Shown piece by piece: positions 11,683-12,714 of a stretch of 27,862 nt of DNA. The stretch lies in the IMG/VR virus record IMGVR_UViG_2561511241_000007, positions 1 to 27,862 of that record. The stretch is one strand, 5' to 3'. The notes beneath the pieces were generated by a model. It had not been told where the DNA came from. It saw only the letters and a list, made by a program, of their open reading frames with translations, and ran no database searches. The position numbers were made by a program, and so were the translations under genes. Numbering within the stretch: the stretch's first letter is position 1; each line of letters opens with the position of its first letter. This stretch comes from a virus. Its lineage: Duplodnaviria; Heunggongvirae; Uroviricota; Caudoviricetes.

Positions 11683-11765
11683 CCGTCACCGGGGACTCGA
11701 ACCCCGCACCACAAAACAACAATACGTGTTATGCACTCTTACCCGATGAGTTAGTGACGGTTTTG
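11683..11765 (-). other. tRNA-like element (possible pseudo-tRNA)
   Basis: Minus-strand sequence has a perfect 7-bp acceptor stem (CCGTCAC/GTGACGG), D-stem, canonical T-arm (CGGGG-TTCGAGT-CCCCG) and a 3' TCCA, but an aberrant ~30-nt anticodon/variable region. Confidence 0.4.
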
Positions 11766-11812
11766 TGTTATGTGGGAATCCAGCCTGACGACAGAATTAC
11801 TGGAACACCTTG

Positions 11813-11845
11813 CAAAAAAAAGCCAGCCACCAGAGACTGGCTGGC
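11813..11845 (-). terminator. rho-independent terminator (minus strand)
   Basis: Stem GCCAGCC / GGCTGGC with a 10-nt loop, followed on the minus strand by TTTTTTTT. Confidence 0.65.
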
Positions 11846-12016
11846 AAATTACAAAGTTTAAATGATTCATCATACAATCGTCGTTACAGGGGAATCCTGC
11901 GGTGCAGCAAGATACAAAAATGTAAGCAAACCAACAATAAGCAAGCACAGCATATTCGGAATTAGTTATAATTTTAACGATGCAGTGCTTATTCAGCATG
12001 CAATTCTGCAAATTAC

Positions 12017-12043
12017 CAAAAAAAACCGCCTGCTAAGGCGGTG
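12017..12043 (-). terminator. rho-independent terminator (minus strand), downstream of the tRNA array
   Basis: Stem ACCGCC / GGCGGT followed on the minus strand by TTTTTTTT. Confidence 0.65.
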
Positions 12044-12403
12044 GTCAAATCAGTAAGTGCTGAAGAGTATTATTATAATACAAGTGAGGTGTCGGGTGCC
12101 TCCCGAAATACCTGACATTCCATCAGATACTGTAGTTTCCCGGCTAAACTACTTAAACCACCCCGCACATGGAGTTCACCTCATTTTGTGATGTTAACAA
12201 CATCGGGATAGTGCATAATCAGCCCCTGCCAGGAAATATCAAAAATCCCACCAATAATGCACTATTCCGATAGCGTCAAAAAACACAGCACCGAAATCAT
12301 AACTGGTCTCCGTTATAATTCGGGAGAGCGATAAAGGATATACGAGACCTTTCCCCGCGAAAAAAACGCCAGTGCTGAAAAACCTATACCTCATTTGTTT
12401 TTC

Positions 12404-12478
12404 TGGAGCGGGCAGCGGGAATCGAACCCGCATCATCAGCTTGGAAGGCTGAGGTAATAGCCATTATACGATGCCCGC
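12404..12478 (-). tRNA. tRNA-Gly (anticodon UCC)
   Basis: Minus-strand sequence folds into a canonical cloverleaf and matches E. coli glyT as recalled; anticodon loop CUUCCAA. Confidence 0.9.
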
Positions 12479-12481
12479 ATA

Positions 12482-12559
12482 TGGTGCCCGACTACCGGAA
12501 TCGAACTGGTGACCTACTGATTACAAGTCAGTTGCTCTACCTACTGAGCTAAGTCGGCA
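12482..12559 (-). tRNA. tRNA-Thr-like (anticodon UGU), slightly non-canonical
   Basis: Canonical D-arm and anticodon stem-loop (CUUGUAA), but one mismatch in the T-stem and an extra G in the 3' acceptor strand. Confidence 0.6.
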
Positions 12560-12560
12560 C

Positions 12561-12637
12561 TGGACCGCCACCGAGGACTCGAACCTCGCACACTCAACTT
12601 AAAGGGTTAACACTCTTTCTTGGTGAACTGGTGGCGG
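12561..12637 (-). tRNA. tRNA-like gene, anticodon uncertain (UUU read in a loop with C33), possibly degenerate
   Basis: Perfect acceptor stem and canonical T-arm (CGAGG-TTCGAGT-CCTCG); D-arm lacks canonical features and position 33 is C. Confidence 0.45.
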
Positions 12638-12638
12638 T

Positions 12639-12714
12639 TGGTGGCCCTTGCTGGATTCGAACCAGCGACCTGGCGATTATGAGTCGCTCGCTCTCACCAC
12701 TGAGCTAAAGGGCC
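12639..12714 (-). tRNA. tRNA-Ile2 / Met (anticodon CAU), ileX/ileZ-like
   Basis: Canonical 76-nt cloverleaf with perfect acceptor and T stems; closely resembles E. coli ileX as recalled. Confidence 0.85.

Follow-up and report, generated by a model that had tools for sequence, protein, structure and literature searches.

Several systems described in Escherichia coli and its phages bear on the locus reported here. Shiga toxin (Stx) phages of the 933W type carry a head-to-tail array of transfer RNA (tRNA) genes, ileZ-argN-argO, downstream of the antitermination gene Q and upstream of moron and lysis genes, in which a gene with the anticodon CAU (Ile2) is followed directly by genes with the Arg anticodons UCG and then UCU, with stx downstream. 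A second type of array, annotated in many genomes, has the order CAU-Lys(UUU)-Thr(UGU)-Gly(UCC), as in RM10740 and phage PhiR47_1. A tRNA-like sequence also lies within xtpA (b4845) of E. coli K-12, a gene for which RegulonDB cites Muto et al.; the title of that paper (Muto et al. 2022, J Biochem 171:459, as given in PMC10767902) names a leaderless xtpA mRNA that includes a tRNA-like sequence. We compared with these systems a four-gene tRNA array (12404-12714) and a separate tRNA-like element of 82 nucleotides (nt; 11679-11760), all on the minus strand of the window, by which we mean the whole 27,862-nt stretch forming positions 1 to 27,862 of IMG/VR record IMGVR_UViG_2561511241_000007.

The stretch is a lambdoid (lambda-like) prophage integrated beside serU in pig-associated E. 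coli, and its four-gene array is of the known CAU-Lys-Thr-Gly type and ordinary. What was established is sequence, homology, scores and distribution, and from these we infer an account of transcription, processing, codon supply, nuclease insensitivity and loss of function to which, as a whole, we assign a probability of roughly 0.6. The locus would be a late-region tRNA cluster, transcribed from the Q-dependent late promoter by Q-modified RNA polymerase, with extra transcription possible from a promoter-like site at 12751-12724, and the host's ordinary tRNA-processing enzymes would cut the transcript into single tRNAs. The first gene would be an Ile2 gene of the ileZ type, the second the argN scaffold fitted with the anticodon UUU and C33, and the third and fourth captured copies of host thrU and glyT. 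Ile2, Thr-UGU and Gly-UCC would supply decoders of AUA, ACA and GGA, and the Lys variant, without the cleavage motif of the PARIS nuclease AriB, would in its common allele be a nuclease-insensitive replacement. In the lineage of the window the Lys gene has seven transitions and the Thr gene a bulged G, and both would be impaired or inactive. The 82-nt element, intact in its acceptor, D and T arms and CCA end, would be processed like a tRNA and would persist as a relic.

The four-gene array

The first-pass annotation had described four head-to-tail tRNA genes with spacers of 1-3 nt, namely Ile2/Met-CAU, an uncertain member, Thr-UGU and Gly-UCC, and all four are present. The first is an ileZ/ileX-like CAU gene (12639-12714; ARAGORN Met(cat); 72.6 bits against the Rfam tRNA family RF00005), which is annotated as tRNA-Ile in the RefSeq genomes of strains ETEC4090 and rl0044; in an Ile2 tRNA of the ileZ/ileX kind, reading of AUA would follow lysidine modification. 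It is followed by a Lys-UUU-like gene (12561-12637), a tRNA-Thr(UGU) gene (12482-12558) and a tRNA-Gly(UCC) gene (12404-12478), and the spacers, with gene limits read from the raw sequence, are 1 nt between CAU and Lys-like, 2 nt between Lys-like and Thr, and 3 nt between Thr and Gly. ARAGORN called Met(cat) at 12639-12714, Thr(tgt) at 12486-12558 and Gly(tcc) at 12404-12478, leaving the Lys-like gene uncalled, and in two genomes with the identical stretch RefSeq annotates tRNA-Ile, tRNA-Thr and tRNA-Gly only.

Comparison with the ileZ/argN/argO array of Stx phages bore out the proposed likeness for the first two genes. The segment 12561-12730, containing the CAU and Lys-like genes, was 85% identical to Stx2 phages, in which the matching features are annotated as tRNA-Arg and tRNA-Ile (ileZ-argN). 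As in those phages, the genes are packed head to tail downstream of Q and upstream of moron and lysis genes, and a homologous CAU gene is directly followed by a gene on the argN scaffold, recognizable by C1-G72, U73, encoded CCA and the D and T arms. The differences are that the second gene has UUU and C33 where the Stx array has UCG and U33, that argO is swapped for copies of host thrU and glyT so that UUU is followed by Thr-UGU and Gly-UCC rather than by Arg-UCU, that no stx genes follow the array, and that a helix-turn-helix (HTH) gene splits Q from the array. Downstream lie instead small-RNA-like blocks and then TerB-family, DUF3927 and holin genes. Judged by this homology, the array is a rearranged relative of the ileZ-argN-argO array of Stx phages; among the papers searched, none mentioned ileZ together with argN. 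With the arrays of the RM10740 and PhiR47_1 type the window shares genes, order, spacers and C33 in the Lys gene, at 95-98% identity, and it differs from them in seven additional transitions in its Lys allele, which has dropped out of annotation, and in one more G in its Thr gene. Like the window, some CAU-Lys-Thr-Gly arrays have the 82-nt element about 645 nt downstream, whereas most lack it.

The fourth gene, tRNA-Gly(UCC), is identical to host glyT (ARAGORN; Rfam 64.9 bits; alignment to K-12 glyT), as it is in relatives, where identity with K-12 glyT is also 100%. Only 3 nt separate the phage Thr-UGU and Gly-UCC genes, and tyrU is absent, whereas the host operon runs thrU-tyrU-glyT-thrT; this implies either capture from that operon and a later deletion or ongoing gene conversion.

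Diverged alleles of the Lys and Thr genes

One member of the array had been described as having C33 and a poor D-arm, and this proved true of the Lys-like gene. Its 77 nt read CCGCCAC-CA-GUUC-ACCAAGAAA-GAGU-G-UUAAC-CCUUUAA-GUUGA-GUGUG-CGAGG-UUCGAGU-CCUCG-GUGGCGG-U-CCA, with an anticodon loop of CCUUUAA (C33), a D-stem GUUC/GAGU containing two G.U pairs, and AG in the D-loop in place of G18G19, so that core positions are C8, A18-G19 and C33 rather than the canonical U8, G18G19 and U33. The gene scored 29.3 bits against RF00005, for which the gathering score is 29, in a 93-nt slice only; a 1.5-kb Rfam search at E<=10 did not report it, nor did ARAGORN or the RefSeq pipeline call it. Covariance scoring was thus consistent with the claim of non-canonical members, with 62.7-72.6 bits for the other three genes and no match for the separate element.

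The uncertain member can nevertheless be identified as a gene of the Lys-UUU type. Alignment to argN of Stx2 phages showed shared acceptor (C1-G72), U73, CCA and D and T arms, with the difference lying mainly in the anticodon stem-loop, and the same array slot in close relatives (RM10740, PhiR47_1, PPompW) is called tRNA-Lys(UUU) by ARAGORN, RefSeq and phage annotators. A scan of IMG/VR for the 3' end of the argN scaffold gave at least 120 loci with at least 122 copies. Among the matches listed, at least 55 copies had UCG with U33, usually in the layout CAU-Arg-Arg, and at least 49 had UUU with C33, in CAU-Lys-Thr-Gly or CAU-Lys-Arg; UUU, UCU and GCG with U33 were each represented by at least one copy, and at least 15 copies had a non-standard middle segment, including at least five of type C and at least five of type A, the form found in the window. 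Because 49 of the 50 UUU copies among these matches have C33, this base is a property of the Lys clade and not a private defect of the window, while C8 and A18 are confined to the allele series to which the window belongs. Further scaffold variants were seen in four IMG/VR loci (L091, L100, L060 and L116), two of them with A33, loops CAUUUAA and CAUAUAA and 24-nt middles, and two being 74-nt copies with a 6-nt loop of the GACAACCACGGUGUUGUAGUA type; loops without U33 therefore recur on the argN scaffold.

Compared with the common Lys allele, which scores 44.4 bits, the window allele has seven transitions, U8C, C11U, U16C, G18A, C25U, C28U and C63U. Four of these fall in stems, where C11U, C25U and C28U give G.U pairs and C63U repairs an A.C mismatch, and two, U8C and G18A, fall at positions of the tertiary core, where the U8-A14 and G18-psi55 contacts are near-universal among tRNAs. 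Intermediates with U8C and C11U exist. The Thr gene is a 77-nt copy of thrU whose 3' acceptor strand has gained a single G, GUCGGGCACCA in the window compared with GUCGG-CACCA in relatives and in K-12 thrU; the gene in relatives is 100% identical to K-12 thrU, and the longer context is GTCGGGCACCA in the window against GTCGGCACCA. Its Rfam score is 62.7 bits with the extra G and 73.8 without it, a cost of 11 bits. Both the acceptor bulge and the T-stem mismatch noted in the first-pass annotation are present in this gene, but only the bulge is an irregularity, since the A.C mismatch also occurs in K-12 thrU and is inherited.

It is possible that such changes reflect errors of sequencing or assembly, and the change in Thr is a one-base length change in a run of G, a common type of error in long reads. 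The extra G in Thr and the seven-substitution Lys allele are nonetheless found together in ETEC4090, in rl0044 and in the independent IMG/VR loci L139 and L143, and the extra G alone recurs in L047, while the substitutions in Lys are atypical of homopolymer error; recurrence in independent loci effectively refutes this explanation, to which we give hardly any credence. A second alternative, which we regard as rather unlikely, is that both genes are diverged but working tRNAs. The Lys allele still attains the gathering score, its four stem changes all preserve or improve pairing, and several independent genomes, whose head and lysis genes seem intact, have retained it; the Thr gene, for its part, keeps a score of 62.7 bits and its annotation as tRNA-Thr. 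These points weigh against impairment and mean that the Lys allele could be diverged and still working; from the other direction, C33 removes the near-universal U-turn base, so that the common Lys allele, too, may decode poorly. Against working alleles are the loss of 15 bits in Lys as well as the 11 in Thr relative to the common alleles, the two near-universal tertiary contacts struck by U8C and G18A, the disappearance of Lys from the calls of ARAGORN and the RefSeq pipeline, and the position of the Thr bulge beside the discriminator, where it shifts the acceptor end. The acceptor end of a tRNA is read by RNase P and by synthetases. On these sequence features the window Lys allele is probably impaired or inactive, and not a new kind of RNA, and the Thr gene with its bulged acceptor G is probably likewise an impaired or inactive allele.

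Codon use and anticodon nucleases

Codon use in prophage genes was compared with a small host sample of 2788 codons. The share of AUA among Ile codons was 16% in the prophage and 9% in the host, that of ACA among Thr codons 24% and 16%, and that of GGA among Gly codons 19% and 10%. Because these shares are about 1.5-2 times those of the host, Ile2, Thr-UGU and Gly-UCC are plausible codon supplements, although the small size of the host sample weighs against reading too much into the difference. The Lys-UUU gene is not explained by codon supply, since AAA is not enriched in the prophage (69% of Lys codons, compared with 77% in the host). The host has a single, abundant Lys isoacceptor, and this tRNA-Lys(UUU) is a classic target of anticodon nucleases.

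An alternative role for the Lys gene is suggested by its anticodon stem-loop, which departs from that of the host tRNA where such nucleases act. The PARIS nuclease AriB cuts host tRNA-Lys at U36AAUC|A41, and the change U39A abolishes cleavage (PMC12409363; see also PMC11464382), whereas the phage gene reads U36AAGUU, with G39-U40-U41 in place of U39-C40-A41. PrrC cleaves 3' of U33 (PMC2610378), and the phage gene has C33. The phage Lys gene thus combines the host anticodon with changed recognition and cleavage sites, as far as sequence goes, and it is plausible that the common C33 allele would serve as a nuclease-insensitive Lys tRNA; the general idea of nuclease-insensitive phage tRNAs has been published (PMC10264068). 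A close parallel is tRNA-Lys of phage T5, a replacement tRNA that resists AriB. Like it, the present gene has the anticodon of the host target, and it departs from that target at the AriB recognition and cleavage positions 39-41 and in the base preceding the PrrC cut. The scaffolds are unrelated, however, and resistance and decoding are here predicted from sequence. A role against PARIS does not extend readily to the whole array, because the Thr copy corresponds to host thrU and keeps the AriB and P2 OLD target sequences. thrU is a target of P2 OLD (PMC12445682), and unlike the phage tRNA-Thr that resists it, the gene of the window type is, in relatives, identical to the sensitive host thrU.

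The tRNA-like element downstream of the array

The separate element had first been placed at 11683-11765 with a perfect acceptor and T-arm and an aberrant anticodon region. Sequence, fold and alignments to the argN scaffold uphold that description and place its true limits at 11760-11679. It reads CCGUCAC-UA-ACUC-AUCGGGUAA-GAGU-G-[CAUAACACGUAUUGUUGUUUUG]-UGGUG-CGGGG-UUCGAGU-CCCCG-GUGACGG-U-CCA. All seven pairs of the acceptor form (CCGUCAC/GUGACGG), followed by U73 and an encoded CCA; the T-arm (CGGGG-UUCGAGU-CCCCG) is perfect; and the D-arm has the stem ACUC/GAGU and the loop AUCGGGUAA, with U8, A14, G18G19 and A21 kept. The acceptor, discriminator, CCA, G18G19-containing D-arm and UUCGA-type T-loop are thus those of a canonical tRNA. 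In the anticodon region, on the other hand, a 22-nt segment, CAUAACACGUAUUGUUGUUUUG, stands instead of the usual 17-nt arm, and a 5-bp stem and 7-nt loop in register, with U33 and a purine at 37, are lacking. The sole hairpin of 5 bp and 7 nt that it can form, AUAAC-ACGUAUU-GUUGU, is not in register and shows C33 and U37; alternatively, the segment can fold as a stem of 7 bp, including a single U.U mismatch, that closes a loop of 8 nt. Neither fold amounts to the anticodon arm of a tRNA. The upper half of the element should be recognized as that of a tRNA, but the element cannot decode because this arm is replaced. It gave no match to RF00005 at E<=10, even in a 101-nt slice. ARAGORN proposed Val(aac) at 11679-11760, which is implausible as the call overlaps the D-stem, and sub-threshold Rfam matches in the area (the T-arm to mascRNA and transfer-messenger RNA, terminators to Qrr, VqmR and GcvB) were partial motifs only.

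The element aligned with annotated tRNA-Lys and tRNA-Arg genes on the argN scaffold at BLAST E values down to 7e-9, and together with the alignment itself this indicates that the likeness is not due to chance. Its arms match working genes with the same acceptor variant, Arg-UCG in Z1323CEC0014 and Lys-UUU with U33 in the IMG/VR locus L015, and compared with those genes its D-stem, ACUC/GAGU rather than GCUC/GAGC, shows a compensatory change of G-C to A-U. By sequence, then, the element is a paralogue of the Lys-like gene on the argN scaffold.

Alleles were sought with an 18-mer from the aberrant segment, TATTGTTGTTTTGTGGTG, in IMG/VR, in a set of one genome per species and in metagenomes. About 20 true instances in nine alleles were recovered, all in E. 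coli prophage contexts and one of them from a metagenome, and 141 further matches were chance hits in unrelated taxa. About 31 of 5426 complete E. coli genomes had the element, usually about 645 nt downstream of the Gly gene, and it was absent from isolated phage genome records; it was without RefSeq annotation in all 16 genomes listed with near-full-length matches. About seven of about 11 inferred substitution events across the nine alleles fell in loops or junctions, and changes in stems included one compensatory pair (G50A with C64U) and one change to G.U (A69G), with two changes that weaken the T-stem.

These patterns could be explained in two main ways. The one we prefer, at roughly even odds and from sequence comparison, is that the element is a non-decoding pseudo-tRNA relic travelling with a small-RNA-like block and terminators. 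The other is that it is a functional mimic of tRNA, titrating or blocking a host enzyme that targets tRNA, whether an anticodon nuclease (PARIS AriB, P2 OLD, PrrC/RloC or retron PtuAB) or a modification enzyme, or else a regulatory RNA. The retention of acceptor stem, elbow (U8, A14, G18G19, T-loop) and CCA, the bias of substitutions toward loops, the compensatory T-stem pair and the compensated D-stem hint at continued selection on the fold and weigh against a simple relic, and the possible 5-bp/7-nt hairpin displays GUA (AUA in three alleles) after C33, tRNA-Tyr(GUA) being the target of the PtuAB nuclease of retron-Eco7 (PMC12445682). We nevertheless consider a functional mimic unlikely. Diversity is very low, with so few instances confined to E. 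coli prophages; the element is rare in E. coli genomes and absent from those of isolated phages; and its middle segment keeps no constant structure across types A, B and C. Moreover the element is no better conserved than adjoining non-coding sequence: identity to divergent relatives, taken segment by segment, is 94-100% for the element, 94-98% for the adjacent conserved block (81% in strain A10) and 92-100% for the spacer and the following terminator T3 (81% in A10). An apparent excess of conservation in strain M8 (100% against 84% in the flanks) was traced to a mosaic boundary further off, and no excess was seen segment-wise.

Relatives of the element in arrays and in xtpA

Two further forms of the scaffold with an enlarged middle were found. 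One, type C, is an 82-nt scaffold copy with another 28-nt middle at the argN slot of arrays with the layout CAU-X-Arg(UCU); it occurs in at least five IMG/VR loci and in strain EC20017429, where RefSeq labels it tRNA-OTHER, and, as in the window, TerB-family and DUF3927 genes come next. The other belongs to the E. coli core genome and sits between yahL and yahM in 5142 of 5426 genomes. In K-12 it occupies 345334-345414, inside xtpA and 85 nt downstream of its start codon; xtpA has an annotated open reading frame (ORF) of 60 codons and a promoter-like TTGACA-16-CATAAT in front. The distance from D-stem to T-stem is 28 nt in the window element, K-12 xtpA and type C, compared with 23 in tRNA. No structure common to the middles of types A, B and C was found: a hairpin with 7 bp and an 8-nt loop fits A and B but not C, and a 5-bp hairpin can be drawn by hand in all three but in differing registers.

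The K-12 xtpA element (L132:2835-2915; MG1655 345334-345414) and tRNA-OTHER (L284:2502-2583) are identical over their first 33 nt. They share T and acceptor arms as well, and these likenesses together point toward a common, probably phage, origin; the sequence comparison suggests that the core-genome xtpA element descends from a phage tRNA array. The window element is, by the same comparison, of one kind with tRNA-OTHER and the xtpA sequence. With tRNA-OTHER it shares its length, the scaffold, the 28-nt middle and the genes that follow, and it differs in lying about 645 nt downstream of the array instead of within it; tRNA-OTHER has the middle AGACGACACGAUAACAGGGUUGUUGGUG and a 5' half nearly the same as that of K-12 xtpA. 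The closest described relative of the element is the tRNA-like sequence in K-12 xtpA, with which it has in common argN-type arms and CCA, the enlarged, non-tRNA middle of 28 nt and the lack of U33 in any hairpin reading. The K-12 sequence differs in being chromosomal, in having another middle sequence and in lying within a 60-codon ORF behind a strong promoter-like sequence, whereas in the window the equivalent frame is interrupted by a stop, no promoter-like site stands in front of the element and a terminator follows closely.

These differences bear on another explanation, that the element acts as DNA, in recombination, attachment or module shuffling, or as part of a small-peptide mRNA like that of xtpA. 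The position of the K-12 relative inside xtpA and behind its promoter-like sequence, and the leaderless mRNA with a tRNA-like sequence named in the title of Muto et al., would be consistent with an mRNA role, and in strain A10 homology breaks just past T3 and in the spacer between the hairpin T2 and the element, as would be expected of a mosaic module. However, an xtpA-like ORF and a promoter at the element were looked for and neither was found: the frame equivalent to xtpA, read from the sequence, has a TAA stop (GCA TAA), no ORF spans the element on the minus strand, and there is no promoter-like site between T2 and the element. Neither an integrase nor an att-type repeat was found beside the element. 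We therefore judge a role as DNA or mRNA to be highly improbable, and retain the reading of a pseudo-tRNA relic.

Terminators and small-RNA-like blocks

The region 11300-14100 contains 11 terminator-like sites, compared with 3.0 +/- 1.7 in shuffled sequences. Three on the minus strand lie near the element. T1 (stem 12042-12025) ends a stretch with similarity to the small RNA STnc100. T2, a terminator-like hairpin with a U8 tract (11813-11845, stem 11845-11822), is conserved in the alignment of relatives. T3, a hairpin with a U-tract (11625-11652; stem 11652-11633 with eight pairs; tail TTTGTATGAG), lies 26 nt downstream of the element and is kept with it in all relatives, including A10, in which the T2-element spacer is largely deleted, with gaps at 40 of its last 60 bases. 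The element had been thought to be bracketed by its own terminators, and T2 and T3 do flank it, but T2 probably ends the conserved block upstream rather than being a terminator of the element itself.

That block (11846-12011, minus strand) is non-coding, has 81-98% identity across divergent prophages and ends at the strong terminator T2 with its U8. It resembles a gene for a small RNA, perhaps one of the PasA/PasC group known from this prophage region. Between it and the array is the STnc100-like stretch (12014-12208, minus strand), which scored 27.3 bits in Rfam, below the gathering threshold of 47; small RNAs of the STnc100/PasD type have been reported in this part of lambdoid prophages (bioRxiv 10.64898/2026.05.13.724894). 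Upstream of the array, a sigma-70 promoter-like site (TTGATT-16-TATTAT, 12724-12751, minus strand) lies 10 nt before the first tRNA gene; it is a consensus match only and by itself not significant, since the region has seven promoter-like sites against 5.2 +/- 2.5 in shuffles.

The prophage and its genomic setting

The segment 11600-12800 is 100% identical to pig enterotoxigenic E. coli strain ETEC4090 and 99.9% identical to rl0044 and ETEC1749, and the best match to the whole window is rl0044, with 100% identity over 1401-25000. That the window is collinear with ETEC4090 was rejected by direct comparison, which showed an IS481 insertion and a differing left part. Relative to window positions 1-8621 and 16683, the ETEC4090 copy has IS481 beside hokD/sok and has lost genes from the terminase large subunit to the head, while its tRNA region is unchanged. 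The prophage is therefore in unlike states of decay from strain to strain. Decay in a defective prophage was considered as a cause of the damaged tRNAs and dropped, because in the window the terminase, portal and capsid ORFs are intact and an integrase ORF of 341 codons is open.

Annotation of rl0044 describes a lambdoid prophage adjoining mtfA-serU, with the gene order integrase, exonuclease, dicB, a Cro/CI-type region, hokD, DUF968, rusA and Q; then a TrmB-like pseudogene, an HTH gene, the tRNAs, TerB-family and DUF3927 genes and two holins; and finally endolysin, HNH, terminase, portal, protease, capsid and tail genes. In the window the host serU gene for tRNA-Ser(CGA) (26882-26971, minus strand; ARAGORN) lies beside mtfA and directly adjoins the prophage integrase gene, from which integration at serU follows. 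Phage SerU-LTIIb matched part of the tRNA region at 77%.

The array had been reported to follow Q as in Stx phages. Q (13980-14648, minus strand; RefSeq annotation of the identical stretch, and ORFs) is indeed upstream, but at a distance of about 1.27 kb, with a frameshifted TrmB-like gene (13571-13734) and the HTH-domain gene (12741-13454), both on the minus strand, between them. These two genes are found there in this lineage only, the same lineage that has the diverged Lys allele and the Thr insertion; in RM10740 Q and the array are about 210 nt apart. The gap in RM10740 (L002:4237-4310, minus strand) gave weak, sub-threshold matches to the Salmonella prophage small RNAs IsrJ (29.3 bits) and IsrK (23.1 bits), and is possibly a short transcript from the late promoter. 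Elsewhere in the window there were full-length Rfam matches to IS009 RNA (41-239, minus strand, 229 bits), to the sok antitoxin RNA beside hokD (16664-16838, minus strand, 110 bits) and to DicF near dicB (22405-22456, plus strand, 73 bits), all known prophage RNAs.

Discussion

The finding is real but largely ordinary, in that all the elements described here are variants of known phage tRNA genes. The 82-nt element, which lacks annotation, belongs to a small group of tRNA-like sequences derived from argN, of which the best-known member is that in K-12 xtpA. Because annotation misses this element and drops the diverged Lys allele, the numbers of tRNAs and tRNA-like RNAs in prophages are underestimated.

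A broader interpretation, which we put forward only tentatively and think quite unlikely to be correct, is that the argN scaffold could be a platform on which lambdoid prophages build tRNA-shaped RNAs that decode poorly or not at all, lack U33 and show the anticodon regions attacked by bacterial immune nucleases, acting as cleavage-resistant substitutes or decoys. The triplets displayed would be UUU in the Lys gene of the array and GUA or AUA in one possible hairpin of the element, the C33 Lys tRNA and the element would act against systems such as PARIS, PrrC/RloC or retron PtuAB, and the xtpA sequence would be a domesticated descendant.

The argN-type scaffold has been rebuilt repeatedly in its anticodon arm: besides Arg-UCG and the C33-bearing Lys-UUU there are four or more non-tRNA variants, among them one with an evident relationship to the tRNA-like sequence in K-12 xtpA. 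As for the Lys-UUU gene of the prophage, it is a candidate counter-defence tRNA of a temperate phage, and interest in the locus would rise if it were true that the C33 Lys tRNA or the element counters defences that target tRNA.

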